From Candidatus Hadarchaeales archaeon (lineage in GTDB: Archaea; Hadarchaeota; Hadarchaeia; Hadarchaeales; Hadarchaeaceae): DNA of 64,000 nucleotides. Made by a program: the position numbers and the translations under genes. Below, one piece after another: positions 15,272-63,199 of this stretch. Location: positions 33,820 to 97,819 of the forward strand of contig JAWCLG010000003.1 in the NCBI GenBank assembly GCA_038851075.1, read 5' to 3'. The notes under the pieces are model-generated. The model was not told where the DNA came from and did not search any database. It saw only the letters and a program-made list of their open reading frames with translations. Position 1 is the stretch's first letter, and every line of letters starts with the position of its first letter.

Positions 15272-15354
15272 CTATAAAGCGGCGTAAAATCCCCTTTTAT
15301 CTCTTTCGTGATTTTAAATCGCGTAAAGTGTTTTTAAGCTTTTCTGATGCCGGC

Positions 15355-16284: not shown

Positions 16285-16392
16285 AATTCAAGTATTCCAG
16301 CTCATTTTTTCGATATCAAAACTCAGAGATGAAAAACGCATTTAGCGATTCAGCGATTCTGTGCAATCAAATGAGTGGTGCCCGGGTTCAGG

Positions 16393-16492: not shown

Positions 16493-16577
16493 ACCGGTTT
16501 GAACTTAAGTATGGGGACTTTAAACCTTTAACGCCGGAAACCACAAATTTTGCTCCAGAATAAATCGACATCTTAGT

Positions 16578-16700
16578 GGTTGGCAGCGTATCGGGCTTCC
16601 CGCCGGCTTGCGCACGGCAGTACAACCTCGATCGCTGGCGGGCTTAACTTCCGGGATCTGACGGGACCGGGTGTCACCCCGCCGCTATGGCCGCCAACCA
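16578..16700 (-). rRNA. rrf: 5S ribosomal RNA (ends +/- 2 nt)
   Basis: The minus strand reads GGTTGGCGGCCATAGCGGCGGGGTGACACCCGGTCCCGTCAGATCCCGGAAGTTAAGCCCGCCAGCGATCGAGGTTGTACTGCCGTGCGCAAGCCGGCGGGAAGCCCGATACGCTGCCAACC. Helix I pairs GGTTGGCGGC with GCTGCCAACC, and the loop C/helix III consensus CCCGGAAGTTAAGCC is present. Confidence 0.9.
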
Positions 16701-42100: not shown

Positions 42101-42202
42101 TGCGGGGGTAGCCAAGCCAGGTCAACGGCGCCAGTCCCTATGGGCGAAACTCAAGATCTGGTCTCCTAGGAGTTCGGGGGTTCGAATCCCCTCCCCCGCA
42201 CC
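42101..42202 (+). tRNA. tRNA-Leu (anticodon CAA), class II, with a 14-nt intron (42134..42147) in the 5' strand of the anticodon stem (30/31); CCA encoded
   Basis: Fold: GCGGGGG TA GCC AAGCCAGGTCAAC GGC G CCAG[TCCCTATGGGCGAA]A CTCAAGA TCTGG TCTCCTAGGAGTT(C) GGGGG TTCGAAT CCCCT CCCCCGC A CCA. Removing the bracketed 14 nt restores the CCAGA/TCTGG stem. A BHB core was verified by hand. Confidence 0.8.
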
Positions 42203-47230: not shown

Positions 47231-47253
47231 TCAATTTTTGGTCTGATTTTGAA
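47231..47253 (-). promoter_or_regulatory. Copy of the locus-specific YCAAAATNAG direct-repeat motif (candidate operator)
   Basis: The minus strand reads TTCAAAATCAGACCAAAAATTGA, versus GTCAAAATTAGCCCAAAATTAGG at 56246. It lies 9 bp upstream of the candidate TATA box. Confidence 0.55.
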
Positions 47254-48466: not shown

Positions 48467-48960
48467 AACTTTTCACCACAGTTAAATTACTGAACTAAGT
48501 TTAAATATATTTTCAAAGATGTATGCAAAATTTTGGTCTCATACCACTGATGGGCTCTTGTCCTCAAGCAGAGCATTACTTCTCGGGCCCCCAACCAAAT
48601 GAAGAGGCTCGGCATGACCGCGGTACAGGCGCTCTTAAAAAACTAAACGGCATCGCTAGGTGATGCTGGCCAAACTCACAGCCGCGAACTCCCGCCTAAT
48701 TTTCTGCGGGACCCAAGGCGAAATTTATTTTTATGCACATTTGACTATTCTGGGGATTCAGATTAAGATAGAAGTCGCGAAAAAATCGTGGCTTACAAAT
48801 GATAAGATACGGCTGAAGTTGGTGTAAGAGTTTCAAGATTGAGGTAAAACTTCAACACCCTTTTAATTTGCACACTTCGGATTTTCTATTAGAACACCAA
48901 CAGCCGGACTCACATGTAAGTCAAATAAGGTAATAATAAAGAAAACAAAATATCTGGGGT

Positions 48961-49485
48961 ATGTGGATGAAGGAACTTTTTAACTCTAAATTCGAGGAAA
49001 TAAAACAGTTCCTAACCGAAACATTCAAGATCGCTGCAATTTTTTCAATCGTTTTCTTTTCAATTCATATATCCTTAATTATAGCACTCCACAACAATAA
49101 CCCTGCCTTTGTTGTTACATCAAACAGCATGTTACATCAAAACGAATCCTGGAGAGATTACTACACTGCGATGGGTATAGACACTTCAAATTTCCCCATC
49201 CAAGGAGGATTCGCACGTGGCGATATTTTATTGGCCGAAGGGGTTAACCCAAACAACATTGCGGTTGGTGACGTGATAATCTTTGAAGCCAGCGGCACCG
49301 AAATCGCGCACAGAGTTGTTGAGATAAGCTTCTCAGATAACAAACCTAAATTCAAAACAAAGGGCGATGCAAATATGTATTCTGCATGGTCTGAATCCTC
49401 AATTTTTCCAGAAAACATAAAGGGCAGAGTAGTTTTTGTACTCCCAAAGATTGGACATATCTTCCTTTGGTTAAGCGGAAAATAA
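48961..49485 (+). CDS. Signal peptidase I, archaeal/ER (S26B, Sec11/SipW) type
   Basis: N-terminal TM helix, then box B TSNSM (Ser), GDILL and GDVIIF, box D IAHRVV (His instead of Lys) and box E KGDAN. There is an unusual ~25-aa insertion between box B and GD. Confidence 0.75.
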   Translation: MWMKELFNSKFEEIKQFLTETFKIAAIFSIVFFSIHISLIIALHNNNPAFVVTSNSMLHQNESWRDYYTAMGIDTSNFPIQGGFARGDILLAEGVNPNNIAVGDVIIFEASGTEIAHRVVEISFSDNKPKFKTKGDANMYSAWSESSIFPENIKGRVVFVLPKIGHIFLWLSGK

Positions 49486-49527
49486 ATCAGCACGACTGAA
49501 TTCTTATGCGTTCGCAACTGCCCAAAC

Positions 49528-50169
49528 TTAATAGCGAGTCCACCGGATATAATCAATGTAAAAAGTGACTGGAAAAACTGGTGTGCCTCCGTAAATCGTG
49601 CACATAAAAGGAGAAGTAACATTACTCAAATTGCTGGTGAAATCTGAAACCGGAATGGATATCTCCTGCCATTCAAAATCGCCGTTCCACCCGTAAGCAC
49701 TAATCCATTTGGAACATTTCATATCGGATGCGGTTATCTCAATCCTCAGATCTTTTCGAGTCAGGACCCAGAACTTCAGATGCCCTCCAGCATAAGGTGA
49801 CATGTCGCGCCCGTCCCAGAAGTAGCCCCAACCCGCTGAGTCCGAAGTTATGGTCTTAAAACATATCTGACCCTCAGGAACTCCAATTTCCCCACATTGT
49901 GAATTGAAGTAGCCTTCTCCCCACGTGTATATATGGCTGTTTGGACCCCAGCCTGCAAATCCTGCGTCGCTGTAAATCACAAACTCTTCAGGAGACGATG
50001 GTTCTGTGACATTAACTGTAAGAATTCCTCTGCCCACGATTATTGATGCAGCTGTATAACTCACTGTCAAAGACACGGCGAATACTAAAACTAGAAAAAG
50101 AAAACGGCCTAAAGACCTGAATGCCCCACGACCCCAGTCAGTTTTTTTTGCCAAACTCTTTGCCTCCAC
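49528..50169 (-). CDS. Signal-anchored stand-alone 'module A' protein
   Basis: 213 aa, consisting of an anchor plus FVIYSDAGFAGWG...PEGQICFKT...AGWGYF...LKFWVLTRKDLRIEI...WQEISIPVSDF...FYIDYIRW. This aligns with the C-termini of the 42245 and 46241 ORFs. Confidence 0.55.
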   Translation of the reverse strand: MEAKSLAKKTDWGRGAFRSLGRFLFLVLVFAVSLTVSYTAASIIVGRGILTVNVTEPSSPEEFVIYSDAGFAGWGPNSHIYTWGEGYFNSQCGEIGVPEGQICFKTITSDSAGWGYFWDGRDMSPYAGGHLKFWVLTRKDLRIEITASDMKCSKWISAYGWNGDFEWQEISIPVSDFTSNLSNVTSPFMCTIYGGTPVFPVTFYIDYIRWTRY

Positions 50170-50194
50170 TATTATATTTGCTTCCTCCTACAAT

Positions 50195-50230
50195 AAAAAA
50201 TAATTCAAAGCGGGAGATGAACTCTCCCGC
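50195..50230 (-). terminator. Hairpin plus oligo-T terminator-like element downstream of the 50253..50753 ORF
   Basis: A perfect 8-bp stem GCGGGAGA/TCTCCCGC with a 5-nt loop lies at 50210..50230. On the minus strand it is followed by TTTGAATTATTTTTT. Confidence 0.5.
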
Positions 50231-50252
50231 CGCTTGCATTGGGCAATCCCGC

Positions 50253-50753
50253 CTATTCCTGGTTGACGTCAAAGTACAGCGTTGACTGGAAGCCCTGCCC
50301 CACAGTATTGTAGTGGCCGACCTGTACCTTGAGTATAATGTAGCTGTTTCCACCGATGCTGAAGGTTCCATGAGACTGACCACCACTGTAGAGATCAGTT
50401 CCATCTAGTTTCCACACGTTCATCCATACTCTATCACCGCCGCCTGAGACGAACAGATTCGACATCACTGAGCTTCCGGTGTTCCTCAATTTGACATAGC
50501 AGGTCGCACTGGTTCCCTGGGGGATCTGCACGCTTGTTATCTCCTGGGTTGCATTCTGGTCGCTGTAGAATTTGACTTCTATAGCAGTGGGTGGCGCAAC
50601 AACCGTAATGCCAAGCGTTCCTTGACCAACTACCACGGATGCGGCCACATAACTGCCAGCTGCTGCAATTGCTATAAGGCTAACAAGAAGTGCTCCCACG
50701 ATCGCCCGAGAGGTGCCCCTTGCGCTGCTTTCCAGCAACCATTCATCACTCAT
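50253..50753 (-). CDS. Small signal-anchored beta-rich protein of unknown family
   Basis: 166 aa with a strong GGAGGT Shine-Dalgarno 8-10 nt upstream. After the TM segment, the motif SYVAASVVVGQGTLGITV is shared with the 49528 ORF (SYTAASIIVGRGILTVNV). Confidence 0.45.
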   Translation of the reverse strand: MSDEWLLESSARGTSRAIVGALLVSLIAIAAAGSYVAASVVVGQGTLGITVVAPPTAIEVKFYSDQNATQEITSVQIPQGTSATCYVKLRNTGSSVMSNLFVSGGGDRVWMNVWKLDGTDLYSGGQSHGTFSIGGNSYIILKVQVGHYNTVGQGFQSTLYFDVNQE

Positions 50754-50818
50754 TTTCTTTTACCTCCTTTTTTATTTTTTCGATTAAGTCTATGATAAAA
50801 ACATTTAATATGAGTTTA

Positions 50819-50880
50819 CCCTAATTTTGAGCTAATTTTGACAATTTTGGTTAATTTTGAAATAGTTTTGACGATTTCGA
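50819..50880 (-). promoter_or_regulatory. Phased array of about 5 YCAAAATTA half-sites (11-bp period) upstream of the 50753 start
   Basis: The minus strand reads CGTCAAAACTAT TTCAAAATTAA CCAAAATT GTCAAAATTAG CTCAAAATTAG GG. The last 24 nt differ at one position from GTCAAAATTAGCCCAAAATTAGGG at 56247..56270. Confidence 0.6.
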
Positions 50881-50935
50881 GTTTATCTAAAAACTTACCC
50901 AGCGCTCTTTGAAATAAATTTCCAGACACAAAAAA

Positions 50936-53365
50936 TTAACCCATCAAGACTCTCACAGAGTGTACCTTCCCATCTCGATGAGGCATTATAATATTGCCCT
51001 CCAGCTCCTCCCCATCAACGTGAATTTCCTTCACTCCACGCTGTACTCCACTTGGGTTTTCAATGGATATGTTATACGACGCCCCCCTGAAAGGCCTCGT
51101 TATCGAACATTTTTTCCATTTTGATGGTATACATGGGTCAATTCTAAGACCCTGATAATCTGGTTTTACACCTAGCATGTGCTCACACATGACTTGAAAA
51201 CTCCATCCTGCAGTTCCAGTTACCCATGTATATGCGCCTCGGCCCGAATCGTAAGGGTGCTCTGGCCCGATAAGATACTCTGCGAAAACATAAGGTTCCG
51301 CCTTGTATCGTCTTTGCTCCTGTTTGCAGGGCATTATCTTGCAGAGACGCCTATATGCAACATCTCCTCTGCCAAGCATGCAATCTGCAGCTATCATAAA
51401 CGCGTTTGCGTGACAAAATATCGCAGCGTTTTCCTTTGTTCCTCTGGCAAACGCTGTTATCCTCCCTATTCTAGGGTCTGTAGAAGTGTACGCAGGATAG
51501 AAAAGCACCAGACCGTTATCCTTCTCTAGATATTTATCAACCGAAGCAGTCAATTTTTTGATTCTCTCTGGCGGGACCACTCCGGAAAGTATCGCCCAGG
51601 ACTGTGGATTCAGATATATTTTTCCTTCTTTATTTGCGGATGAACCAAAAGGCTCTCCATCATCGGTGAAACCCCTCAAATACCACTCTCCGTCCCAGCC
51701 CACTTTGTTTATCCTTCGCGTCATTTCGTCAGCCTTTTTTATTAGATCGGTGGAGATTTCCTTTTCATTGATTAGAACCGCGAGATCTGCCGCTATCTTA
51801 AGAGATCTTACAAGCGCCATTGCAAGCCAGACGCTTTCCCCAACACCCCTCCTGCCAACCATATCCAGAGCATCGTTCCAGTCCGCCTCCCCGATTCTTG
51901 GCAAACCATGATCACTAACATCGTTGAACGTGTAGTTCAGCTGGGCTAGCATATGCTCGAATATAGTTCCTTCTCCGTCCTCAGTGGCTCCTTTGTGCCA
52001 GTTAGGATCCCTTATCGTTCCACCCATCCTCCATGCGTCCCTTAGCCAAGGTGCTTTTTGCATGAGAAAATTAACGTCTCCTGTCTCCTTCACGTAGGAC
52101 GCCACGGAAGGGGTGAACCATATCGGATGATCCTTGTACGGCTTCTGCGGGAACGGTCCATAAGTATCAGACCACCCCGGAGCGCATGTGCCATCTCTCC
52201 TTATTATTGAAGCTATTTTCAATAATTTTTCTCTGGCATGAAGTACATCTACTGCGAGCAGGGCTTGGGCATCCTGACAGGAATCGCGGTATCCTCTACC
52301 TCCCTGCCCCTCGTGGTAGTATGATGGAGATCTGCTCCAGTAATTGCATACGTAAAGTTGGTATTTCGTCCATATGTTAGCCATGATGTCAAAATCAGAG
52401 TCTGGAGTGCTGACAGCTATTTTACCTAGACGCTCTCTCCAAGTTTTTTTGACCTCATCCAGCTCACTTTCCACATTTTTTAAGTCATAGTATTTTTTAA
52501 GTGTCATAACCGCTTTTTCCTCGCCTTCGGTTTCACCCACAACAAAAACTATAATCCTCTCTTCTCCGGGAGCAAGCGCAATGTTATGCTGCAAGACACC
52601 GATAGCTTCATTGCCCTCGCAAAGGCTCTGGTTGCATTTTCCTCTGAAAATCGACTCGGGCTTTTCCTCGTTATTATAAAGTCCCAAGAACTTATGTTTA
52701 TGACAGTCCCAACCATCGACCTTAGATGGTGTTCCAATGAAAGCGATCAGCGGATTCGATGAAACTGGCAGTTGCTCGTAGACCGCCTGCCCGAAAACCA
52801 GCGTCTTTTTGGCAAAAATAGCGTTCGCATTTTTTTCAAACCATGCTCTATTATACAGTATTGCTATGTTGTGGAAGTTCATCTCAACGTTGTCCCCAAG
52901 CATCCACTCAAGATAGCTGAACACGCTTAAATTCCGTTTTTTCTTTGATTTGTTTTTTATTCTTACCCTCCATATTTCACATGTATCTACTCTGGGGACG
53001 AAGTAGGTTACCTCACCATATATGCCCCCTGAGGATGAGGAGATAACCTGATACCCTAAACCGACCCTAGCTTCAAATTTATCTAAAGCCCTCCTCAAAG
53101 GTTGCCAAGTTATGCTAAAAACTTCTCCGCTGTCTCTATCTCGAATAAAAACATAACGCCCCGGTCTGTCCGTCCATAGATCCCTGCCCACCCAATAAAG
53201 TATTCGATCTGTTTTTGGGTCTTTATAAAAGCTGTACCCGCCACCTGTGTGCGATATAACCGCGCAATACTTCTCGTTCGTCAAAAAATTTACCCATGGG
53301 GCAGGGAGATCCGGTCTGTTTATAATATATTCATAATTATCTTTGCTAAATCTCCCATATTTCAT
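50936..53365 (-). CDS. GH94-family glycoside phosphorylase (cellobiose/cellodextrin/chitobiose/laminaribiose phosphorylase-like), cytoplasmic
   Basis: MKYGRFSKDNYEYIINRPDLPAPWVNFLTNEKYCAVISHTGGGYSFYKDPKTDRILYW is the characteristic GH94 N-terminus. The protein is ~809 aa with no signal sequence. I chose the start at M13 of the track ORF. Confidence 0.88.
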   Translation of the reverse strand: MKYGRFSKDNYEYIINRPDLPAPWVNFLTNEKYCAVISHTGGGYSFYKDPKTDRILYWVGRDLWTDRPGRYVFIRDRDSGEVFSITWQPLRRALDKFEARVGLGYQVISSSSGGIYGEVTYFVPRVDTCEIWRVRIKNKSKKKRNLSVFSYLEWMLGDNVEMNFHNIAILYNRAWFEKNANAIFAKKTLVFGQAVYEQLPVSSNPLIAFIGTPSKVDGWDCHKHKFLGLYNNEEKPESIFRGKCNQSLCEGNEAIGVLQHNIALAPGEERIIVFVVGETEGEEKAVMTLKKYYDLKNVESELDEVKKTWRERLGKIAVSTPDSDFDIMANIWTKYQLYVCNYWSRSPSYYHEGQGGRGYRDSCQDAQALLAVDVLHAREKLLKIASIIRRDGTCAPGWSDTYGPFPQKPYKDHPIWFTPSVASYVKETGDVNFLMQKAPWLRDAWRMGGTIRDPNWHKGATEDGEGTIFEHMLAQLNYTFNDVSDHGLPRIGEADWNDALDMVGRRGVGESVWLAMALVRSLKIAADLAVLINEKEISTDLIKKADEMTRRINKVGWDGEWYLRGFTDDGEPFGSSANKEGKIYLNPQSWAILSGVVPPERIKKLTASVDKYLEKDNGLVLFYPAYTSTDPRIGRITAFARGTKENAAIFCHANAFMIAADCMLGRGDVAYRRLCKIMPCKQEQRRYKAEPYVFAEYLIGPEHPYDSGRGAYTWVTGTAGWSFQVMCEHMLGVKPDYQGLRIDPCIPSKWKKCSITRPFRGASYNISIENPSGVQRGVKEIHVDGEELEGNIIMPHRDGKVHSVRVLMG

Positions 53366-53607
53366 TTTCAGCCACTCTCCTTTTTTTGATCTATTTCTCA
53401 CAGATTAAATCAGTACAGGATAAAAATATAACCCATAGTGCACAGTTTTAGAGTACTGGGGCAGTAAATTGCACAAACATGAGAAAAACCCGTTGATCAT
53501 GTTTTTTCACTGCCTCGCAGGCGACCTGCAGGCTACGCTCGAACTTGCTCAGCCTGTTTATCCTGAGACAAATGGTCTACGGTGGTTCAACCCTTATCCT
53601 CACATAA

Positions 53608-53621
53608 GGTCAAAGTTATGC
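53608..53621 (+). promoter_or_regulatory. Degenerate copy of the locus motif upstream of the 53669 ORF
   Basis: GGTCAAAGTTATGC versus GGTCAAAATTAGCC, about 50 nt upstream of the ATG and in the same orientation relative to the gene. Confidence 0.3.
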
Positions 53622-53668
53622 AACGTATCATTTTTATAGCAACATACTTAAAGATATTATGAAAACAT

Positions 53669-54571
53669 ATGGATAACGTTCAAGAGTGGTTAGAACCAAC
53701 AAAAAAAATACCTACTGCAATAGTAACTGTTATAATTTTGATTATTTGTGTTGCCTCTGCTTTTACAGTTATAATCATTTTCACACCAAAAGCTGCAGAC
53801 AATGGTTCCACAGGTAGTGGTGGAGGTAATGGAACGGCAAGCCAAAATATGCCACCTACGGCCATGTTTACTTACTCACCGAGTTCCCCAACTGTGGACG
53901 ACGATGTATTCTTCATTAATATGTCCACTGACATCGATGGCACAATCATAAGCTACAGCTGGAACTTTGGGGATGGAAATACAAGCACGGATCAAAATCC
54001 CATTCACAAATATTCTACAGCTGGTACTTACTCTGTTAGACTCACCGTAACAGACAACGGTGGGAAAACGGGGGATTATGAGAAATCAATAACTATTGGA
54101 GGAACCGGAGAAAACGTCTTCCAAGACTTCGAGTTAAACAACGGCACACCAGGAGCATATTTCTATAACGCTTGGAGAGCAAGCTCCGCATTTGAAACAA
54201 ATATAGTGCAGGGAGGGATCAGATCTGTGAAGTTTGTGGTACCCCCACCAGATAATCAGAATAATGGCGCCACTCTCGGGATAAATGTCGCCTCACCAAC
54301 TGGGACAATCGACCTCACTAATGCAACGAATATTTCACTATGGGTTTATGATACTCAAGGGAACAATACCATAGAACTCAAACTTAAAGACAAAAATGGA
54401 ACCCTCGGTCCAGGCATTTGGTCAAGCTTGTCGTCTGTATGGAACACTTGGACAAAGATAACTTGGAACATCAGCGAATATCAGGGTGTCGATATGAGCC
54501 AGATCGCAGCAATAGAACTTTATGAGTGGAATGGGGGCACATACTACTTTGATACTATTGCATACAAATGA
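53669..54571 (+). CDS. Signal-anchored PKD-domain protein with a C-terminal CBM-like beta-sandwich (third type)
   Basis: The PKD signature is FTYSPSSPTVDDDVFFINMSTDIDGTIISYSWNFGDGNTSTDQNPIHKYSTAGTYSVRLTVTD. The C-terminus carries TNISLWVYDTQGNNTIELKLKD...WTKITWNISEY...YYFDTIAY. Confidence 0.6.
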   Translation: MDNVQEWLEPTKKIPTAIVTVIILIICVASAFTVIIIFTPKAADNGSTGSGGGNGTASQNMPPTAMFTYSPSSPTVDDDVFFINMSTDIDGTIISYSWNFGDGNTSTDQNPIHKYSTAGTYSVRLTVTDNGGKTGDYEKSITIGGTGENVFQDFELNNGTPGAYFYNAWRASSAFETNIVQGGIRSVKFVVPPPDNQNNGATLGINVASPTGTIDLTNATNISLWVYDTQGNNTIELKLKDKNGTLGPGIWSSLSSVWNTWTKITWNISEYQGVDMSQIAAIELYEWNGGTYYFDTIAYK

Positions 54572-54856
54572 TGCATCCCTACGATTCTAACGTCTTTACA
54601 TTTCACCAGTATTTATTAAAAGCTACGCCAAACCCGATTATTCGCCGCAAACTTTGGTAGAAAAATAATCACGACACCTTCACACGAATCAGCTACATAT
54701 TTACAAAAATAAAACTGGAAAATTCATGTATACAAGACACTTCAAAAAAACCTGTCGTCCCCTATTTGAAATAGCTCCACCAATCAGGATGTTTTTTTCA
54801 TGGATTCGGTTTTATGAACCAGATTGTACTAAAAAGAGACCGGGAAGGCATCCGGC

Positions 54857-56098
54857 CTAATATTTTACCTGGCTTTTTACATGAGTAACGTTTCTAATAT
54901 TTTTTATCTCTTGCAAGATTGAAGGTGACTTTTCAAGAGCCACGCCCTTCATTATTTTTATATCATCCAACATGTGCCAATTGGTCTGACCGCCAGTGCT
55001 GGCTGAAAATCCGATTCCGTCATACGCTCGTTCTATTTTTCCGCTCCATTCCAGAACTTTATTCTCATCGATATGGACTGTCACAGCAGAGTCCTCAACT
55101 ATAACTTTTACATAGTGCCATTTAGAATCGACAACCCTGGGCTCTTCCACGTACTCAAGGTGATTTTTTGGATGGTTTTTGATAAGCGCAAGATGAGGAT
55201 ATGGAGGATCTCCGTAATCTACGTTTTGTACTCCATCAAACTCTATCCCATATCCTGGAATTGGAGCAACTCCAGACACAAAACCCAAGTTTCCACCGTC
55301 ACACGGCCAATAGTTTTTTTTCTTGTAAAACATGAAAACAAAACCATCGCCTCCACTACCGCCTCCGATCTTGTATTTGAAATCCGCAATGAATGGAGAT
55401 TTTATTCCTTTTTTAAGCCACATTATCCCGGCCTGCCATTCCTGATTTTTTGTGAGAACAACACATTTTTTAGAAATGTCATAATATGCATCGCGCACCA
55501 TAATCCACATCCTCTTATTAATATTGGTAGACTTTGCCTCAAGCAAAGATTGTACGTCAACTGTACCGCTTGAGATGTTGTTGATTATGTTTGTGTAGTT
55601 TATACGCAGCACTGGGGTTTCTCTTAATTGGAACGTTTCAAGTGTACAGACTCTTTTCATAAAATACTCGGAAAAAGATTCATTTTCTTTTGAGGATAAT
55701 ATATCTGGATCCTCCTCAGCCTTTGGGATGTATTTCAGATATGTGAGAAGATCGTTTATTTCCATTTCCTTAAACTCGCCATTTAGATCCTTGACTTTTA
55801 TTATTTCTCTGCCCAGCCTTTCTTTTATAGTTCGATATGCTGAAAGTCCCTCATCAGTAAGGAAATAAACATTCTTAAATCTGCCAGTGCTTCTTGAGAA
55901 TTTTCTGTCGTGCGCGACCAGTTTATTTTTTTCCAGTTCCTTTATGGTTGTTGATATTCGCTCCAGAGACATATTAATATTTTCAGCGATACCTGCTTGT
56001 GTCAAAGAATGAGGAAACTCATCATTATAACTCCTGACGATATCCCTATTGTCACCTAGATAGATGATTATCTTTTCATCTAACCGTATGGTTAACAT
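54857..56098 (-). CDS. Putative transcription regulator: N-terminal winged helix plus C-terminal L-type (legume-like) lectin / ConA-like domain
   Basis: The N-terminus LTQAGIAENINMSLERISTTIKELEKNKLVAHDR...YFLTDEGL is wHTH. The C-terminus aligns to L-type lectin blocks: GDGFVFMF (ADGxAFF), GGNLGF, GYGIEFDGVQN...DPPYPHLALIKN (VAVEFDT.QN..DP...HIGIDVN) and GIGFSASTGGQTNWHML (VGFSAxTG....H.I). There is no signal peptide or TM segment. Confidence 0.65.
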   Translation of the reverse strand: MLTIRLDEKIIIYLGDNRDIVRSYNDEFPHSLTQAGIAENINMSLERISTTIKELEKNKLVAHDRKFSRSTGRFKNVYFLTDEGLSAYRTIKERLGREIIKVKDLNGEFKEMEINDLLTYLKYIPKAEEDPDILSSKENESFSEYFMKRVCTLETFQLRETPVLRINYTNIINNISSGTVDVQSLLEAKSTNINKRMWIMVRDAYYDISKKCVVLTKNQEWQAGIMWLKKGIKSPFIADFKYKIGGGSGGDGFVFMFYKKKNYWPCDGGNLGFVSGVAPIPGYGIEFDGVQNVDYGDPPYPHLALIKNHPKNHLEYVEEPRVVDSKWHYVKVIVEDSAVTVHIDENKVLEWSGKIERAYDGIGFSASTGGQTNWHMLDDIKIMKGVALEKSPSILQEIKNIRNVTHVKSQVKY

Positions 56099-56175
56099 TA
56101 CACCCCTATTTTAATATATATTTCTCTCTTTTATTTAAATATTTTTCGCTTTAAAGTTTTTTAATTATTTTTTTT

Positions 56176-56185
56176 TAATTTTGGG
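56176..56185 (-). promoter_or_regulatory. Inverted half-site of the locus motif on the regulator side of the divergent promoter region
   Basis: The plus strand TAATTTTGGG equals CCCAAAATTA on the minus strand, so it is co-oriented with the regulator gene. Confidence 0.35.
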
Positions 56186-56244
56186 ATTTTTAAAAACCTT
56201 AAATTTCTAATTATTTAAAAAAATAATTTTTTTAATATCACTAT

Positions 56245-56270
56245 TGGTCAAAATTAGCCCAAAATTAGGG
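56245..56270 (+). promoter_or_regulatory. Locus motif copy 1 (candidate operator) in the regulator/GH26 divergent region
   Basis: TGGTCAAAATTAGCCCAAAATTAGGG contains two YCAAAATTAG units 11 bp apart. Confidence 0.6.
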
Positions 56271-56286
56271 CGTATTTACCAAAAAC

Positions 56287-56308
56287 TGGTCAAAATTAGC
56301 CCAAAATT
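56287..56308 (+). promoter_or_regulatory. Locus motif copy 2, exact 22-bp direct repeat of copy 1
   Basis: TGGTCAAAATTAGCCCAAAATT is identical to 56245..56266. The start-to-start spacing is 42 bp. Confidence 0.6.
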
Positions 56309-56369
56309 TACAAGGGTTAACATCCCTATTAAAAGCAAGTAGCAGTTGCTCGCGTCAGAATTCCCAAAG

Positions 56370-56377
56370 TTTAAATA
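56370..56377 (+). promoter_or_regulatory. Candidate TATA box of the GH26-ABC operon
   Basis: TTTAAATA matches the archaeal TTTAWATA consensus and is preceded by the purine-rich CCAAAG. It lies only ~19-31 nt from the possible starts (TTG 56396, GTG 56408), which suggests a leaderless or very short-leader mRNA. Confidence 0.5.
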
Positions 56378-56395
56378 AAAACAGGGACACCAGTA

Positions 56396-57976
56396 TTGAG
56401 GATTATCGTGGTAAACAAAAAAATCGTCTTGGCTACCGGGCTTTCGATAGCCGCGGTGATTATCGCTGTCTTCTTCATTCTTAACTTAGAAAAAAGGTGG
56501 TGGATCGAGGAAACCCGAGAAGATCAGGTTTACTTCGGTGCTTTCGTGCCCGGTGTTGAGGCATCAATTAAACTTCTTGATCAGCTTGAGAGCACTATCG
56601 GACAAAAGCTAACGATAATAAACACATTCCTGCCATCCAGCGCTGATTTTCCGGCCGAGTTCTGCGAACGCATAATCTACCACGGAGCAATACCCATGAT
56701 AACTTGGATGCCCCAGCCCAGAGACCCGAGCACCGAACACGGCAGAGTGCTGGACAGCATCGCCGGGGGCAACTGGGACAGTTATATAAGAAAATGGGCC
56801 GTGGATGCAAGAAACTTCGGTAAACCGGTGTACATTAGATGGGGGCATGAGTTCAACGGATACTGGTACCCCTGGAGCGTCCCAGCGAACGAAAACAGCC
56901 CCGATAAATTTGTGGCGGCATGGAAGCACGTTCACGACATATTTGCCAGAGAGGGTGCAACAAACGTCCAGTGGGTATGGTGCCCGTACCTGCGCAGCAA
57001 CCCTGATGAGGCGTGGAACGATCCACTGCTCGCATATCCGGGTGACGAGTACGTGGACTGGATCGGAATCGATGAGTACAACTGGGGATCAAGCTTCATA
57101 TGGAGCAACTGGCTTGAGTTCAGCGAGATCTTCTCGAACAAGGTGAGGATATTCAGCACGCACTTTCCGACAAAACCGATAATGATCGCCGAGGTCGGGT
57201 GTACCGAGGAAAATGAGCTACCGGGTCAGACGAAAGCCCAGTGGGTGAGAAACATGCTGGACTCTCTAAAGTGGATGACTCCAATACGTGCTGTTGTTTG
57301 GTTCAACTCATTTAAGGAAACAGACTGGCGCATGGAGTCGAGCGAAAGTTCTCTGGATGCTTTTAAAGAGATTTTTAGGGATGCGTACATAGCAGACGAT
57401 GCGAGAGGTCTCTGGAAGATCCCTGATAACTTCAGATCTGACCCGAACATATGGCCCACTTCAACAGTAAGGGCGGAGATGCCGTTCTACGTTTACGGAG
57501 ACAACGGTGGAAACTTTGCTGCCTCTGGGTGGATGGGGGACTACCAATCCATGACCCTTTCAGAGTACTGTACGGAAACCCCAGCTGTAGGAGACACCTG
57601 CATGAAGGTAAAGTACGACATAACAACCAGCAGGAAGGTCTGGGCAGGAATCTACTGGCAGAACCCGCCCAACAACTGGGGTAACGAAGATGGAGGATAT
57701 GACCTCTCAGATGCAACAAAGTTAGTATTCTGGGCCAGGGGCGAAAACGGAGGGGAAATTGTGAACTTCAAAACAGGCGGTATAAGCGGCAGTTACCCGG
57801 ACTCGGCTTTCGTCGTGCTCGGAACAATAACCCTGTCAAAAGAATGGCGAGAGTATGAGATTGACCTCAGGGGACACGATCTGTCATACATATCCGGTGG
57901 GTTTGTTTGGGTCGCCAAACAGGACCAGAACCCCAAGGGGTGCACGATATACCTAGACGAGATAAGATATGAATAA
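56396..57976 (+). CDS. Signal-anchored GH26-like glycosidase (mannanase/lichenase family) plus C-terminal 'module B'
   Basis: GH26 blocks are present: YIRWGHEFNGYWYPW (acid/base Glu), YPGDEYVDWIGIDEYNW and PIMIAEVGC (nucleophile Glu). The C-terminal ~160 aa are homologous to the 47309 ORF C-terminus. The start may be the GTG at 56408. Confidence 0.8.
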   Translation: MRIIVVNKKIVLATGLSIAAVIIAVFFILNLEKRWWIEETREDQVYFGAFVPGVEASIKLLDQLESTIGQKLTIINTFLPSSADFPAEFCERIIYHGAIPMITWMPQPRDPSTEHGRVLDSIAGGNWDSYIRKWAVDARNFGKPVYIRWGHEFNGYWYPWSVPANENSPDKFVAAWKHVHDIFAREGATNVQWVWCPYLRSNPDEAWNDPLLAYPGDEYVDWIGIDEYNWGSSFIWSNWLEFSEIFSNKVRIFSTHFPTKPIMIAEVGCTEENELPGQTKAQWVRNMLDSLKWMTPIRAVVWFNSFKETDWRMESSESSLDAFKEIFRDAYIADDARGLWKIPDNFRSDPNIWPTSTVRAEMPFYVYGDNGGNFAASGWMGDYQSMTLSEYCTETPAVGDTCMKVKYDITTSRKVWAGIYWQNPPNNWGNEDGGYDLSDATKLVFWARGENGGEIVNFKTGGISGSYPDSAFVVLGTITLSKEWREYEIDLRGHDLSYISGGFVWVAKQDQNPKGCTIYLDEIRYE

Positions 57977-58016
57977 CACCACAAGTATTAAAAGAAAACC
58001 CGATGAAGGAGAAGAG

Positions 58017-59411
58017 ATGAAAATGATGATGATTTCCTTCAGGAAAGAGAACAGGGGAGTATCAAAAACACTCCCTGTGATAATTATTATTGCAATAGCG
58101 GTGTTCGGAATTCTTATTTATAGAAGCCTGGGCGGCGGTGCCGAAATGCGCTGGTGGACCGTTCACTCAGGCGCATGGGGGCACTCTGAATGGCACACGT
58201 ATTCCCTTGAAGAATACGACAAGCTTTACGGACACCTTATTGAAAGAACCGACTATGACAATCCAAACTTTAAATCTTCAATACTCAACGCAATGCTCGC
58301 TGGTGACCCGCCGGAGATATGGCATTCCTGGGGGGGGACCCAGCTGAAGAACTTTGTTGAGATGGGGTACGTTGAAGACCTGACCGACCTGATGAATGAG
58401 AGCTGGGCACTGGATATACTTCCCCTCGAAAGCCGCGATAAGCTGATATGGAACTCCACCTGGAACGGAAAAAACTATGGATTTCCATACAGCGTTGGAG
58501 TTATCCAGATATACGTTAACAAAGACCTGTTCGATTCGTGCGGCATAGATTTGCCATCAGTTGAAAACGATGAAACATGGACATGGAGTCAGTTCATTGA
58601 CGCGATACAGACACTTAAAAATCACGGGATAACTCCAATAACGATCGCGGGGACTGAGACATGGCAGCTCTCATTCTGGTATATGTACCTTGTAGACCGA
58701 ATTGGAGGACCGGAGTACTTCACCAAAACGCTGAACCGCTATCCGGGATACTCCTTTGAAGACAATGTGTTCTTGGAGGCTGCCAGAAAGTGCAGGGAGC
58801 TCGTGGAGATGGGTGCATTCCAGCAGACATTCATGGCGGACGGATACGACAAGGCCATAACGATGTTCTCCCAGGGACAGGCCGCAATGTACCTTCAGGG
58901 CTCCTGGGAGATAAAAACTATGAAAACTTACTATAATCAGAACCTGAACGTTGACGTTATCAGGTTCCCCCTCATGGACAACAGCGCCAACGGCGACCCG
59001 CACTCAATTGTTGTGAACGTTCAGGACTACTTCTGCGTCTCATCAACTACGAAGAACAAGGAGGCAGCGTTCAACTTCATAAGGCTGCTTGGCAGAGAGG
59101 ACGTGATTAGAAAATTTGTTGAAAAGGCCGGGGATATATGCGTGTTCGACTCCAGAGTCGGGGGAGGAGTAGACATTCCATCCTCGCTCTACGAGCCGGT
59201 GATCAACAAGCAAATCGAAGAGTTCAACAACTCCACCCATACACAGATGCCCTGGGATCAGTACTCTCCGCAGCAGTTCGCACAGAAGCACCTAGAGTGC
59301 ATGAAGAGGCTCTTCGATGGCACGTGGACTCCAGAGAAGGTGGCCCAAGAGCATGAAACAATAGCCCAATCCCTGAAAACGAGTGGTTACCTGCCGGTCT
59401 CATATGGATGA
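58017..59411 (+). CDS. ABC transporter sugar-binding protein (solute-binding family 1), signal-anchored
   Basis: An N-terminal anchor is followed by a typical family-1 SBP layout (PEIWHSWGG...NGKNYGFPYS...AAMYLQGSWE). I chose the start at MKMMM (58017). Confidence 0.85.
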   Translation: MKMMMISFRKENRGVSKTLPVIIIIAIAVFGILIYRSLGGGAEMRWWTVHSGAWGHSEWHTYSLEEYDKLYGHLIERTDYDNPNFKSSILNAMLAGDPPEIWHSWGGTQLKNFVEMGYVEDLTDLMNESWALDILPLESRDKLIWNSTWNGKNYGFPYSVGVIQIYVNKDLFDSCGIDLPSVENDETWTWSQFIDAIQTLKNHGITPITIAGTETWQLSFWYMYLVDRIGGPEYFTKTLNRYPGYSFEDNVFLEAARKCRELVEMGAFQQTFMADGYDKAITMFSQGQAAMYLQGSWEIKTMKTYYNQNLNVDVIRFPLMDNSANGDPHSIVVNVQDYFCVSSTTKNKEAAFNFIRLLGREDVIRKFVEKAGDICVFDSRVGGGVDIPSSLYEPVINKQIEEFNNSTHTQMPWDQYSPQQFAQKHLECMKRLFDGTWTPEKVAQEHETIAQSLKTSGYLPVSYG

Positions 59412-59429: not shown

Positions 59430-61193
59430 GTGAAGAGAAACTTTTTACCCTACATCTTCATTTTACCTGCACTTGTCCTATTTCTGATGTTCTTCATATT
59501 CCCGAATGCCTACGTTTTCTATTTGTCGATGCACGAACTTGGTCCGAGCGGTGAGGCGCAGGAAAACTGCCTTACCAGCATTTACCCTCGATACCTGAAT
59601 GAGAACAACTTCTATCGGGCAGAGTTTGATATAAAATCCGGAATTTTTTGCCTGATGAGGATATACGAAGGAAACGAAGAAACTCTCATTTCTGACGGTT
59701 TTTCATCTGGTAGGGTCGGAACCTGGTACAAATTAAGGGTTGAGGTGATAAAAAAGGACAACGTCGATACGATAAGATCTTGGATAATCGGAATTGAGAA
59801 CGGATATAAAATCTTTGAAAACTCGTGCGCTCCGCTGAACCACGGCGGACTTGCCCTGTCAGCATATTTCAACAGGGATTTTACTGTGGTCTGGGACGAT
59901 CTCCGGATGATGGAATATCTCGAAGATAAGCCGAATGTGGCTTTTGGCGAAGAAACAAGTTCAGACATTGAAAACTGGGAAAGGAGCAGAACCATTGAAA
60001 TCGAGGGAACTGGTAAAGCACTGGAAAACTATCCGATCCAGTTCGATATTGAATGGCAGACAGACATGAGGGCTGACTTTGGAGATATCCGGTTTACGGG
60101 GGAAAATGGAGCCGAATTTCTGGACTACTGGATCGAGAGGTACTCGCGCGGTCAGCTTGCAACCGTCTGGGTGAAAATCCCATTATTGCCGGAGAACGGT
60201 ACCGCAATCAAAGTTCACTACGGCAACCCTGAGGCAACTTCATCAAGCGAGATTCGGAAAACTTTTGTATTCGGGGACGATTTCGAAGACGCCGCCTGGA
60301 CGAACGCCCACTTTGAGATGTCCGAATGTGAAGGGTGCTCGCAAGTGGCTGAAAACGGAGAATATGTGATGATGGGCAATGCTGGGTCTCTTGTGTTCAC
60401 CAATATAAACCTCCCAGAAATTCCTGAAAACATTGTTTTGGAGGTAAACGTGAAGTTGAAGAAGGTAGGCACAAGAGAATTTGGTCTTTCGTTCGTCGGG
60501 GCAAAAAATTTCTTGGAGCTATTCTCAGACAACATGTTTCTGATGTCTCTGCTTCTGGTCGCAGGCATAGCGATACAGTCCATAGTGGTGCAGGTCCCCG
60601 CGGGTCTGGGGCTCGCTCTTGCGCTGAGGAACATCAGGGGATCCCGCACTTTCCTAACCATATTCTTCCTCCCGATGACAATATCCCTCGTCACACTCTG
60701 CCTTATGTGGAAGTACCTCATATTCAGTCCTCAGGGCATTCTTAACTCAACCTTTGGGATGAGCCTCGACCCGACCAAAGATGCGTTCACGCTCTTCCTC
60801 GCGGTGAACATCATCGCGGACTGGATATATATTGGACTTTACACTGTGATGTTCAACAGCGCCATGAAAAGCATACCAAAATCTGTTTTTGACGCCGCCA
60901 AGGTCGATGGGCTCTCAGGATTCAAAACCCTTAGAAAGATAGTGATACCTGCCCTGAAGAACATCATTCTGGTATCGATAATAATGTGCATCTCCGGGAC
61001 TTTCAAAACATTTGACACGTGGTGGGTGCTGGGAGGAGGTCCGACCGCCCCGCTTCATCTGCCCTCAACCTATCTGGTGACAAAAATAGGGTCCGGTCTA
61101 ATAGGATATGCCTCAGCCATAGCTGTGATCAGTTTCTTCATATGTCTGGTCATAGTGCTAATCCAGCTGAAGGCGATGAAGGTGAAGGTATGA
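59430..61193 (+). CDS. ABC sugar permease (MalF/UgpA type) with a ~330-aa extracytoplasmic DUF2341/LamG-like insertion after TM1
   Basis: TM1 is YIFILPALVLFLMFFIFPNAYVFYLSM. The insertion contains ADFGDIRFTGENGAEFLDYWIERYSRGQLATVWVKIPLLPENGTAIKVHYGNPEA, a DUF2341 signature. The normal permease core then resumes at FVGAKNFLELF and carries the EAA-type loop AAKVDGLSGFKTLRKIVIP. Confidence 0.85.
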   Translation: MKRNFLPYIFILPALVLFLMFFIFPNAYVFYLSMHELGPSGEAQENCLTSIYPRYLNENNFYRAEFDIKSGIFCLMRIYEGNEETLISDGFSSGRVGTWYKLRVEVIKKDNVDTIRSWIIGIENGYKIFENSCAPLNHGGLALSAYFNRDFTVVWDDLRMMEYLEDKPNVAFGEETSSDIENWERSRTIEIEGTGKALENYPIQFDIEWQTDMRADFGDIRFTGENGAEFLDYWIERYSRGQLATVWVKIPLLPENGTAIKVHYGNPEATSSSEIRKTFVFGDDFEDAAWTNAHFEMSECEGCSQVAENGEYVMMGNAGSLVFTNINLPEIPENIVLEVNVKLKKVGTREFGLSFVGAKNFLELFSDNMFLMSLLLVAGIAIQSIVVQVPAGLGLALALRNIRGSRTFLTIFFLPMTISLVTLCLMWKYLIFSPQGILNSTFGMSLDPTKDAFTLFLAVNIIADWIYIGLYTVMFNSAMKSIPKSVFDAAKVDGLSGFKTLRKIVIPALKNIILVSIIMCISGTFKTFDTWWVLGGGPTAPLHLPSTYLVTKIGSGLIGYASAIAVISFFICLVIVLIQLKAMKVKV

Positions 61194-62077
61194 AAACCGA
61201 ATTCGAGAAGGAATGGCACGGTAAAAAGATACTGAAATACGCCGTCCTGGTGATTTTCGCCGCGATAATACTTGTTCCCATAATTATGCTCGTGGTGGAA
61301 TCACTGAAAACCGGTGAAGAGTTCGTCAAGAATCCCCTGTCCCTTCCATCAAATCCGCAGTTCTCAAACTACATCGACGCCTGGAGAGGTGAGACCACAA
61401 CAATGGTCCCGGGACAAAAAATCAATCTCGGGATAGGAATCGAAGATGGTTTCATAAACAGTCTCATAGTGGTGATTGCTTCCGTTTTTATAATTCTGGG
61501 CATAGGGCCGCTCGCCGCATACGCACTTTCATCCCTTGACCTGAGAGGAAGACGAGCATATTTCTACGTTTTTATGAGCGGCATGTTCATCGGAGGACCT
61601 GCGCTGCCTGCCCTCTGGATGCTGACAAACATGCTCGGCATTTACAACACATATCTGGCGCTGATACTCCCATATGTAGCCGGGGCCCTGCCGTTCACCA
61701 TCCTGATAATGTGGTCGTATTTTAAATCCACCTCAAGGTCCCTGTACGAGGCCGCAAAGATAGACGGTCTCTCCCAGTTCAAAACTTATTACAAAGTGAT
61801 GCTTCCAACCGCCATGCCCGCGCTCATGACGGTAGCCATACTGCAGACAATATGGATATGGAACGAATTTTTGCTATCGCTTGTGCTAATACAGAACCCC
61901 AACTTTTACACAATCCCCAGGGCGGTTTACTTCTTCTCAACCGCGGCCACCAAAGGACCGGGCTGGGGGATATTCTTCGCCGGAGTTCTGCTGGCAGCCC
62001 TTCCCACAGTGATAGCATACTTGCTGTTCTCTGAACAGATAAAGAGAGGCATGAGCATGGAGGTCTTCAAGGGCTGA
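61190..62077 (+). CDS. ABC sugar permease (MalG/UgpE type)
   Basis: The ATG at 61190 overlaps the upstream stop (ATGA). The EAA loop EAAKIDGLSQFKTYYKVMLP is present. I rejected the track ORF's 57-aa N-terminal extension. Confidence 0.9.
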   Translation: MKTEFEKEWHGKKILKYAVLVIFAAIILVPIIMLVVESLKTGEEFVKNPLSLPSNPQFSNYIDAWRGETTTMVPGQKINLGIGIEDGFINSLIVVIASVFIILGIGPLAAYALSSLDLRGRRAYFYVFMSGMFIGGPALPALWMLTNMLGIYNTYLALILPYVAGALPFTILIMWSYFKSTSRSLYEAAKIDGLSQFKTYYKVMLPTAMPALMTVAILQTIWIWNEFLLSLVLIQNPNFYTIPRAVYFFSTAATKGPGWGIFFAGVLLAALPTVIAYLLFSEQIKRGMSMEVFKG

Positions 62078-62089: not shown

Positions 62090-63199
62090 TCAGGCCACCA
62101 TCACTCCTCCGGGCTCATCAAAAAACCTGACGCATTCCATACTGAGGGTCAGATAAACCGTGCTTCCAACGTCCTTCCCGAAATCGGGGCGAACCACTGC
62201 AGTCATCTTCGTCCCACCAGCGTCCAGCTCCAGATATTTAACGTTGCCCATCTGCTGAGAGAAATAAACCTTGGCCGGCATGGCCCCCCTCATCCTCTTT
62301 TCGCTCACCTGAATATGCTCCGGTCTTATTCCGATGGTTATCTTCGAGCCTGAGATGCTTCTCTTTAACGCGCGCCACAGCGGCAAAGGTATCAACAGAC
62401 TGAAATCACCAGTCGCCTCAAAGAACACTTTTCCTCTCCTTCTTACCAGATCTCCGGTCACGAAATTTATTTTTGGACTGCCTATGAACTCCGCTATAAA
62501 CTTGTTAGCGGGACAATCATATATTGTCTTTGGCCTGTCCAGCTGGAGCAGCTTTCCGTCCTTAAGCACCGCAACCCTGTCAGCAAGTACCATCGCCTCG
62601 GCCTGATCATGTGTTACGTACACGGTTGTTGTCTTCAACTTATTATGCAACTTCTTGAGCTCTGTTCTCATGGAAACCCTAAACAACGCGTCCAGGTTTG
62701 AAAGCGGCTCATCCATAAGATAAATGGATGGGTTTCTGACGATCGCCCTCCCAAGAGCCACCCTCTGTTGCTGCCCTCCGCTCAGCGCAGTGGGCCTTCT
62801 TCTAAGCAGGTGCGTTATCTGAAGTATTTCTGCGGTCTTTGTCACCCTCTCAACTATTTCTTCCTTTGGGACTTTGTCGACCTGAAGACAGAGGGCCATG
62901 TTATCAAAAACCGTCATGTGCGGGTAAAGGGCGTACTCCTGAAAAACCATTGCCACGTTTCTTTCCTTGGGCTCGAGATCGTTGACGCACTTTCCGTTGA
63001 ACAGTATTCTGCCCTTGGTTGGCTTTTCTAGACCGGCAATCAACCTCAATGCGGTGGTCTTGCCGCAGCCTGACGGGCCGAGAAAAACCATGAACTCTCT
63101 ATCCTTTATTTCTAGATCTAGGTTATCGACAGCCTTCACGCTGCCGAACTCCTTGCACAGATGTTCAAGCTCAACTTCTACCATTTTTGACCATTCCAT
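62090..63199 (-). CDS. ABC transporter ATP-binding protein (MalK/UgpC type with C-terminal TOBE-like domain)
   Basis: Walker A GPSGCGKTT, signature LSGGQQQRVALGRA, Walker B IYLMDEPLS. The start is possibly M6 (63184). Confidence 0.92.
   Translation of the reverse strand: MEWSKMVEVELEHLCKEFGSVKAVDNLDLEIKDREFMVFLGPSGCGKTTALRLIAGLEKPTKGRILFNGKCVNDLEPKERNVAMVFQEYALYPHMTVFDNMALCLQVDKVPKEEIVERVTKTAEILQITHLLRRRPTALSGGQQQRVALGRAIVRNPSIYLMDEPLSNLDALFRVSMRTELKKLHNKLKTTTVYVTHDQAEAMVLADRVAVLKDGKLLQLDRPKTIYDCPANKFIAEFIGSPKINFVTGDLVRRRGKVFFEATGDFSLLIPLPLWRALKRSISGSKITIGIRPEHIQVSEKRMRGAMPAKVYFSQQMGNVKYLELDAGGTKMTAVVRPDFGKDVGSTVYLTLSMECVRFFDEPGGVMVA

Follow-up and report, generated by a model that had tools for sequence, protein, structure and literature searches.

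A winged-helix protein with an L-type lectin domain as a candidate oligosaccharide-responsive regulator of a beta-glucan locus in Candidatus Hadarchaeales

In the Thermococcales, TrmB and TrmBL1 (Tgr) are cytoplasmic one-component regulators in which an N-terminal winged helix is followed by a C-terminal sugar-binding domain, and they are encoded beside clusters of sugar ATP-binding cassette (ABC) transporter and glycoside hydrolase (GH) genes; TrmBL1 activates transcription when its site lies upstream of the B recognition element (BRE) and TATA box. AraC pairs a cupin jelly-roll arabinose sensor with a helix-turn-helix (HTH), the RsgI anti-sigma factors of Clostridium thermocellum carry carbohydrate-binding module (CBM) sensors, and MalT-type proteins, once oligomerized in response to their ligand, bind arrays of direct repeats. 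Direct repeats, with a 7-8-bp unit and an 11-bp period, are also bound by winged helices of the PhoB/OmpR type on pho boxes. None of the known sugar-responsive one-component regulators has been described with an L-type (legume-like) lectin domain as its sensor, and for prokaryotic L-type lectin domains the searchable literature has so far considered a role as surface adhesins only. Here we describe a gene of a Candidatus Hadarchaeales archaeon (assembly GCA_038851075.1, contig JAWCLG010000003.1), located within a stretch of 64,000 nucleotides hereafter called the window, whose product joins a winged helix-turn-helix (wHTH) module to such a lectin domain.

The best explanation for this gene, held with moderate confidence, is that it encodes a cytoplasmic one-component regulator which senses beta-glucan oligosaccharides through the lectin domain. 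Both domain types reside in one soluble polypeptide, encoded beside genes of the pathway that would be sensed, and the domain order, one-component type and transporter/GH neighbourhood resemble those of TrmB and TrmBL1. The sensor nevertheless has a fold other than that of TrmB, as a preliminary description of this DNA had anticipated, with neither PF01978 nor PF11495 found among the Pfam matches of the protein up to E = 10.

Domain organization and distribution of the fusion protein

The preliminary description had proposed a gene for a winged-helix regulator fused to an L-type lectin. Its open reading frame (ORF) was recovered exactly, on the minus strand with a product of 413 amino acids (aa), and all of the sequence blocks that had been quoted (GDGFVFMF, GGNLGF, GIEFDGVQN..DPPYPHLALIKN and GIGFSASTGG..NWH) were present in the translation. 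This product was 100% identical to the NCBI entry MEM2878247.1, a ‘hypothetical protein’ from a Ca. Hadarchaeales metagenome-assembled genome.

The assignment of the C-terminal domain to the L-type lectins is solid by sequence and fold comparison. The Pfam profile PF18483 (Lectin_L-type_dom) matched aa 190-375 with an E-value of 1.4e-18 (model positions 3-209 of 215), and because its score of 67.9 bits is lower than the curated gathering score of 78.3, membership is stated as homology by E-value and not by curated cut-off. Precomputed PF18483 matches were found on all homologs, the C-terminal half gave weaker matches to Lectin_legB and Lectin_leg-like, and single-sequence and profile searches of the PDB returned peanut lectin, Griffonia lectin IV and a legume-lectin domain of M. 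jannaschii (7ELV). A full-length AlphaFold2 (AF2) model, built from 15 family members, had a mean predicted local distance difference test (pLDDT) score of 69, with moderate values in the lectin domain and a disordered linker. Almost all of the top 50 PDB matches retrieved with this model by Foldseek were L-type lectins, led by peanut lectin (2PEL, E = 2e-9) with others following to 9e-9; 7ELV aligned with a template modelling (TM) score of 0.71, the match probability was 1.0 for both peanut lectin and 7ELV, and Emp46/47, VIP36 and ERGIC-53 were also retrieved. Profile and fold searches thus place the domain where the preliminary description had put it, although it begins near aa 190 and not at the proposed aa 200. 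A GH16-like enzyme was considered for the beta-sandwich and rejected, given that GH16 appeared only lower in the fold list and that the conserved residues mapped to lectin metal and sugar positions.

In the profile alignment, residues D251, G269, E286, D288, N292, D297 and H302 of the window protein were paired respectively with D83, G104, E121, D123, N127, D132 and H137 of peanut lectin (PNA), and E286, D288, N292, D297 and H302 thereby correspond to the Mn2+/Ca2+ ligands of PNA. Residues D83, G104 and N127 of PNA contact sugar hydroxyls (10.1101/2020.06.20.162875), and the monosaccharide triad of Asp, Gly (backbone) and Asn is present in the window protein as D251, G269 and N292. All seven residues were invariant among the 15 fusion-family members. 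Amongst the extracellular relatives, D251, E286, D288, D297 and H302 were likewise invariant and N292 nearly so, with variation at the position of G269. Across the family, identity within the lectin domain was 61-70%, as against 34-48% for the N-terminal module, and this better conservation of the lectin than of the DNA-binding domain indicates that it is under selection. Since its metal and sugar residues are conserved, the canonical lectin site of the fusion protein looks functional.

The N-terminal ~100 aa had been read as a wHTH from sequence, and structure prediction bears this out. Pfam and NCBIfam matches of aa 1-125 to wHTH families, namely HTH_Crp_2 (E = 3.5e-4), PadR (0.011), MarR_2 (0.071), Lrs14 and MarR_EPS, each fell under their own cut-offs, so that no match to Pfam MarR, MarR_2 or PadR was above threshold, and profile matches in the PDB (ST1889, MJ223, MepR and an Lrs14-like protein) had E-values of 0.012 or worse. 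A dedicated AF2 model of aa 1-128 was confident (pLDDT 87.5, predicted TM score 0.75) and displayed a wHTH fold, comprising helix H2 (aa 34-41), a recognition helix H3 (aa 45-57) and a long beta-wing (aa 61-80), followed by a helix (aa 82-96), a beta-hairpin (aa 99-113) and a final helix (aa 114-123). The best PDB folds found for this model with Foldseek were of the MarR family, including DNA-bound MepR, SlyA, ZitR, MexR, YodB, AbfR2 and Pex. The N- and C-terminal dimerization helices of the MarR type were absent from the AF2 model, which has one helix, the hairpin and a short helix after the wing. The recognition helix (invariant residues S44, E46, R47, S49 and T50) and the wing (R69, G72, R73, F74 and Y78) constitute the most conserved part of the module.

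A profile of aa 1-128 retrieved 1194 representatives, with E<=1e-10 for 208, and in all of the best 150 of the 1194 matches the module started within the first 64 residues. The ~125-aa module is homologous to the N-terminus of archaeal wHTH-STAND proteins (E-values down to 6e-31), P0026 among them. In nine of ten sampled relatives it was followed by a STAND NTPase (ATPase_2, AAA_16 or NB-ARC), with TPR repeats in five and DUF835 in one; no ATPase Pfam match, and hence no STAND/AAA NTPase domain, was found in the window protein. Placement at the N-terminus and fusion to STAND NTPase/TPR sensors are as expected for a DNA-binding output domain. The members of this large family are fused to STAND NTPase/TPR or DUF835 domains or occur alone at 120-170 aa, and no Pfam family reached its curated cut-off over the module in the window protein and the ten relatives scanned, for which reason the wHTH-hairpin module may be without a Pfam family of its own.

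The window protein is without a hydrophobic segment of the signal-peptide or transmembrane kind, its maximum Kyte-Doolittle mean over 19 residues being 0.77, and the corresponding maximum was at most 0.91 in all 29 fusion proteins. By contrast, 97 of 114 lectin-only relatives had a signal or transmembrane-like segment, the remainder being mostly fragments. As hydrophobic stretches and export signals are missing from 29 of 29 members, the fusion protein should be cytoplasmic, as had been supposed. The linker retains a conserved YxLKE / (T/N)YTNI motif. Two segments of the window protein have no counterpart in any homolog, these being a 22-aa insertion in the linker (aa 130-151; 55646..55711, minus strand) and the 28-aa C-terminal tail.

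Clustered at 90% identity, the full-length wHTH-lectin fusions made up only approximately 15 clusters among 5.8 billion, all named members belonging to Candidatus Hadarchaeales. The N-terminal profile recovered a single lectin-fusion representative (P0011) from a library of 1.84 billion proteins. A lectin-only profile gave 190 matches; among the 143 lectin-containing proteins compared, which included the best 120 of these 190, both modules were combined only in Hadarchaeal proteins, and none of 114 lectin-only proteins matched the wHTH profile. When the family alignment was used in a profile search of genome contigs, a lone lectin-only relative from Actinoplanes was found among the matches listed. 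A wider spread of the fusion was considered in view of 340-380-aa lectin relatives, including those of the Nitrososphaerales, and was rejected when all ten of those inspected proved to have a signal peptide or membrane anchor. The closest lectin relatives of the fusion are accordingly secreted or membrane-anchored proteins. The picture is of a DNA-binding output module, normally heading MalT-like STAND sensors, that would have acquired in this lineage a lectin domain from an archaeal surface-lectin clade. The searchable literature, which does not extend to subscription journals, yielded no account of an L-type lectin joined to a DNA-binding domain, and PF18483 appeared there in an adhesin context only; the proposal of a new regulator architecture is supported, with the addition that it is a rare one.

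Repeat arrays and the conserved glycan cluster

The regulator gene was compared between the window and other loci (L001-L003, L004, L005, L006, L007, L009 and L010), in which the encoded protein is 45-53% identical to that of the window. In nine distinct loci, the window included, the gene lies near genes for a GH94 phosphorylase and/or a GH26 enzyme, an ABC solute-binding protein (SBP), a permease and MalK, with the GH26, SBP, permease and MalK genes present wherever the contigs reach far enough. It is immediately upstream of, and co-oriented with, the GH94 gene in L001-L004, L009 and L010. In L005 the two genes are 459 bp apart, in L007 a small DUF5678 gene intervenes, and in L006 the ORF downstream of the regulator is broken off by the contig end. 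In the window, as previously noted, the gene and a GH26-SBP-permease operon are divergently oriented; GH94, PKD/CBM proteins, TIM-barrel glycosidases of the GH-A type and MalK are encoded nearby (Table 1). No further regulator gene conserved in the cluster was identified in the loci examined; a 123-aa gene was considered for this role and discarded, as it encodes an S26 signal peptidase; the products of the remaining small genes are anchored beta-rich proteins.

The preliminary description had also pointed to repeated candidate operators, and these were confirmed. The octamer TAATTTTG occurs eight times in the 64 kb, as against 2.4 expected, with all occurrences between 50.8 and 56.3 kb. The dimer TAATTTTGNNNTAATTTTG, with up to three mismatches, gave nine matches in the window against 0.74 expected, all of them at 47233-47251, 50811-50870 and 56165-56309, inside the three intergenic regions that had been named beforehand. 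The first array includes two identical copies of a 22-nt sequence, TGGTCAAAATTAGCCCAAAATT, at 56245 and 56287. Arrays were found at orthologous positions upstream of the regulator and of the divergent 164-aa or GH26 gene in L001, L004, L006, L007, L009 and L010, for which local shuffling of five of these six array-bearing comparison loci gave means of 0.03-0.43 per locus. In L001 and L006 the orthologous 164-aa gene is preceded by an array at the position of array 2, in L001 and L004 the orthologue of the PKD gene has upstream of it arrays that are near-identical to array 3 and similarly placed, and the short spacer between regulator and GH94 bears arrays in L001, L004 and L009. Overall, arrays adjoin the regulator gene in seven of the eight distinct loci with usable upstream sequence.

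When 48 units from 14 arrays were collected, their consensus was (G/C)N(C/T)TAATTTTG(G/A), and 11 bp was the predominant spacing. The arrays consist of two to seven units in direct repeat; in the direction of the target gene the units read CAAAATTA, and they are located at -55 to -150 relative to its start codon. TATA-like boxes were located by pattern; in the PKD-gene promoters the proximal unit begins 18-19 nt upstream of such a box, and in array 3 it begins 19 nt upstream of the TTTAAATA box. The invariance of the recognition helix and wing of the wHTH is matched by that of the DNA motif.

The enzymes of the cluster point to beta-glucan or cello-oligosaccharides as the substrate, since a cellobiose-phosphorylase-like GH94, a Lic26A-like GH26 and a GH158-like enzyme are all encoded. 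Mannan, whose oligosaccharides had been named among possible ligands at the outset, was judged less likely, in that the GH26 matched the lichenase Lic26A with an E-value of 3e-44 as against ~1e-5 for mannanases, the GH94 resembled cellobiose and chitobiose phosphorylases, and the GH158-like enzyme was present. Whilst the family name GH26 suggests a mannanase, the nearest relative is thus the beta-1,3-1,4-glucanase Lic26A, and its C-terminal CBM-like domain is shared with the PKD protein at 47309..48466.

Table 1. Features of the window; nucleotide positions are numbered from its first letter, and E-values are those of the best-matching solved structure
Feature	Positions	Strand	Remarks
wHTH-lectin regulator gene, complete	54857..56098	-	ATG start, 413 aa
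N-terminal module (winged helix, helix, beta-hairpin, helix), aa 1-125	55724..56098	-	
Linker, aa 126-189	55532..55723	-	aa 127-162 predicted disordered
L-type (legume-like) lectin beta-sandwich domain, aa 190-385	54944..55531	-	
Binding-site loops, aa 249-302	55193..55354	-	D251, G269, E286, D288, N292, D297, H302
C-terminal tail, aa 386-413	54860..54943	-	low confidence in model; variable or absent among homologs
Array 1, five 11-bp-phased units	56245..56310	+	divergent regulator/GH26 intergenic region, 94-147 nt upstream of GH26 start
Array 2, four to five phased units	50819..50877	-	76-106 nt upstream of 166-aa gene
Array 3, two units	47233..47251	-	70-81 nt upstream of PKD gene 46241..47170
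GH26 + CBM-like enzyme, first gene of GH26-SBP-permease operon	56396..57976	+	closest to C. thermocellum CelH/Lic26A, E 3e-44
ABC solute-binding protein (SBP)	57969..59411	+	xylo-oligosaccharide-type binding proteins, E 2e-38
ABC permease with DUF2341 insertion	59430..61193	+	
ABC permease	61019..62077	+	
MalK-type ATPase	62090..63199	-	
GH94 phosphorylase	50936..53401	-	cellobiose phosphorylase 3QDE, E 1.9e-144
PKD protein, in putative operon downstream of array 3	46241..47170	-	
GH158-like TIM-barrel glycosidase, putative array-3 operon	44618..46219	-	GH158 E 1.5e-14
Second GH-A-type glycosidase (772 aa), putative array-3 operon	42245..44563	-	
166-aa and 213-aa anchored or secreted proteins, downstream of array 2	49528..50753	-	kept in homologous loci

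Several further features of the cluster were recorded. In the window, an inverted PKD/CBM gene (53669..54571, plus strand) separates the regulator from GH94, unlike most other loci. Because this gene intervenes and the GH94 upstream region is without the motif, an apparent local rearrangement at 53402..54856 may have uncoupled GH94 from the regulon. A conserved trio (48961..49485 on the plus strand, with 49528..50169 and 50253..50753 on the minus strand; 8159..9731 in L001) encodes an S26/SipW-like signal peptidase and two small proteins, and may represent a dedicated processing system for surface glycan-binding proteins. The 166- and 213-aa proteins each have an N-terminal RG and hydrophobic anchor and gave no Pfam match; the C-terminus of the latter is homologous to those of the PKD protein encoded downstream of array 3 and of the 772-aa glycosidase, and is for this reason probably a CBM. 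The first permease carries DUF2341 at aa 216-290 (E = 1.7e-17), N-terminal to its BPD_transp_1 membrane domain. The orthologous permeases of L001 and L004 are only 341 aa, and DUF2341 also precedes the lectin domain of the extracellular relative P0019.

The G+C content of the cluster core (48000..58000) was 0.40-0.46, compared to 0.50-0.53 elsewhere in the window, and this lower value suggests that the glycan cluster is a horizontally acquired island. At its left edge, Rfam called a 99-nt tRNA (42102..42200, plus strand; 39.4 bits) that was missed by ARAGORN, and which on that account probably contains an intron. No known RNA families were found at the regulator locus, and elsewhere in the window these comprised only 5S rRNA and tRNAs, including a 5S rRNA (16578..16698) flanked by tRNA-Asp (16417..16493) and tRNA-Lys (15197..15271) genes (15197..16698, minus strand).

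Proposed mechanism and alternative explanations

We propose that the MarR-like winged helix at the N-terminus would bind the 11-bp-phased direct repeats located a short distance upstream of the locus's TATA-like boxes, the target promoters being those of the GH26-ABC transporter genes, the 166/213-aa genes and the PKD-GH158-like operon, together with that of GH94 in other genomes. The lectin domain, with its intact Ca/Mn site and Asp-Gly-Asn triad, would bind in a metal-dependent manner a beta-glucan breakdown product imported from outside, the likely ligand being cellobiose or a short oligosaccharide (cello-, laminari- or mixed-linkage) that enters via the adjacent ABC transporter. Ligand binding would then change the DNA occupancy or oligomerization of the regulator. 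Of this picture, the identities of the domains, the missing export signals and the conservation of site residues, neighbouring genes and repeats are direct results, and the binding of DNA and sugar, the choice of ligand, the direction of control and the oligomerization are inferred. Several subunits would probably be arranged head-to-tail on one face of the helix, possibly joined by lectin-lectin contacts, in which case the lectin may supply the multimerization that STAND domains give in the relatives. Activation appears slightly more likely than repression, since the arrays are located upstream of the TATA-like boxes and not over or after them, and by analogy with TrmBL1 and other archaeal activators; repression through occlusion of the BRE is the other option. 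A more specific version, which we offer tentatively, is that the lectin was recruited as a ligand-sensing and oligomerizing module of a cytoplasmic activator, with oligosaccharide and metal driving cooperative head-to-tail assembly on the 11-bp-phased repeats next to the BRE/TATA and so switching on a beta-glucan regulon.

A number of observations weigh against a lectin-based sensory regulator. All of the wHTH sequence matches of the N-terminus were sub-threshold, the PF18483 score fell short of the Pfam gathering score, and the lectin model was only moderately confident, with pLDDT below 50 in binding loops 266-278. The canonical lectin site requires both Ca2+ and Mn2+, and free cytoplasmic Ca2+ is expected to be low. 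Moreover, most of the conserved site residues are metal ligands, which may have been kept for folding alone. With respect to the DNA, MarR-like wHTH proteins usually bind palindromes as dimers and not direct repeats, the motif was not found in the GH94 promoter region of the window (53402..53668) or in L005, and the repeats are T-tract-rich and phased, such that their conservation may partly reflect DNA curvature or a factor encoded elsewhere.

These points leave room for other roles. The lectin could serve as an oligomerization or scaffold module of a DNA-binding regulator that is itself controlled by abundance or by a partner such as MalK. Legume lectins associate via their sheets into dimers and tetramers, and in this way several wHTH modules could occupy phased repeats; direct repeats of two to seven units at 11-bp spacing need multimeric head-to-tail binding, the N-terminal module has no MarR dimerization helices of its own, and its relatives use STAND oligomerization domains. 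A pure scaffold, however, would have no need of the full sugar triad and metal site that are invariant in the fusion family and held in common with extracellular lectins, and scaffold and sensor roles are not mutually exclusive; we regard a scaffold without a sensory role as unlikely, though worthy of consideration. Somewhat less probable still is that the lectin fold senses a non-carbohydrate signal, such as a nucleotide or Mn2+/Ca2+, and couples the glycan locus to energy or metal status. One precedent is DORN1, an L-type lectin receptor kinase of plants, which binds ATP; among the seven invariant residues of the site, five are metal ligands, and the loop that matches the specificity loop of legume lectins bears an invariant NWH motif. 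The strictly conserved setting within a beta-glucan uptake and catabolism cluster nonetheless speaks for a glycan signal, as do the retained Asp and Gly positions that contact sugar hydroxyls.

It is similarly improbable that the protein is no transcription factor at all, but a cytoplasmic glycan-binding factor whose winged helix makes protein-protein contacts or binds RNA, with the TAATTTTG arrays bound by another regulator or acting as curved-DNA elements. The weak wHTH matches and the phasing of the T-tracts would agree with this, whereas DNA-bound regulators are among the fold matches of the module, its invariant part is the recognition helix with the wing, STAND signalling proteins have homologous modules at their N-termini, and the gene is the sole regulator-like gene conserved in a cluster whose arrays adjoin it in nearly every usable locus. 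Export by a non-classical route, with an extracellular lectin like those of the relatives and an apparent wHTH resulting from a mis-called N-terminus, is very improbable. All of the closest lectin relatives are indeed secreted or anchored, but the N-terminal module is conserved from its first residues with a consistent start in 15 clusters, and the N-terminus folds confidently and has no hydrophobic segment.

If correct, the proposal of a lectin-based sensory regulator would mean that the functions of the lectin fold include signal sensing inside the cell, and TrmB would be joined by a second class of archaeal sugar regulator with an unrelated structure. It would provide the first lectin-based one-component regulator, with STAND and lectin sensors exchanged on a common DNA-binding module and the lectin functionally replacing the STAND NTPase sensor. 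A cytoplasmic sensory role for a lectin would surprise specialists, and the family is small and confined to an uncultivated order. With the protein, the candidate operators and a limited set of candidate ligands specified, the hypothesis lends itself to direct testing, and a switch of this kind, compact, probably thermostable, responsive to oligosaccharides and provided with a defined operator, would be usable as a biosensor.

Comparison with known systems

With respect to its sensor, the window protein differs from TrmB and TrmBL1 in that an L-type lectin beta-sandwich with a metal site takes the place of the TrmB effector-binding domain, and its operator candidate is an array of 11-bp direct repeats, unlike the TGM palindrome of the TrmB type. 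To peanut lectin, ERGIC-53/VIP36 and 7ELV it is akin in fold, in its Mn/Ca ligands and in the Asp-Gly-Asn triad. These lectins, however, occupy extracellular or luminal sites and have no DNA-binding domain joined to them, whereas the window protein has a wHTH and no export signal; it also has Gly-Asp in place of the usual Ala-Asp before the key Asp, as well as family-specific YWP and NWH loop motifs. Amongst regulators that use a beta-sandwich carbohydrate module to control the transcription of glycan-utilization genes, AraC has a cupin fold and a C-terminal HTH of its own type in contrast to the lectin fused to a DNA-binding domain described here, and RsgI, unlike the intracellular window protein, detects extracellular polysaccharide and relays the signal through the membrane to a sigma factor.

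The likeness to winged helices of the PhoB/OmpR type lies in the direct repeats of 11-bp period, suggesting head-to-tail binding on one face of the DNA, yet the window protein has no receiver domain and no sequence relationship to these regulators, its wHTH being MarR/PadR-like by fold. With the archaeal, MalT-like wHTH-STAND NTPase(-TPR) proteins it shares a homologous N-terminal module, the difference being that the NTPase/TPR sensor, along with any ATPase motif, has been wholly replaced by the lectin.

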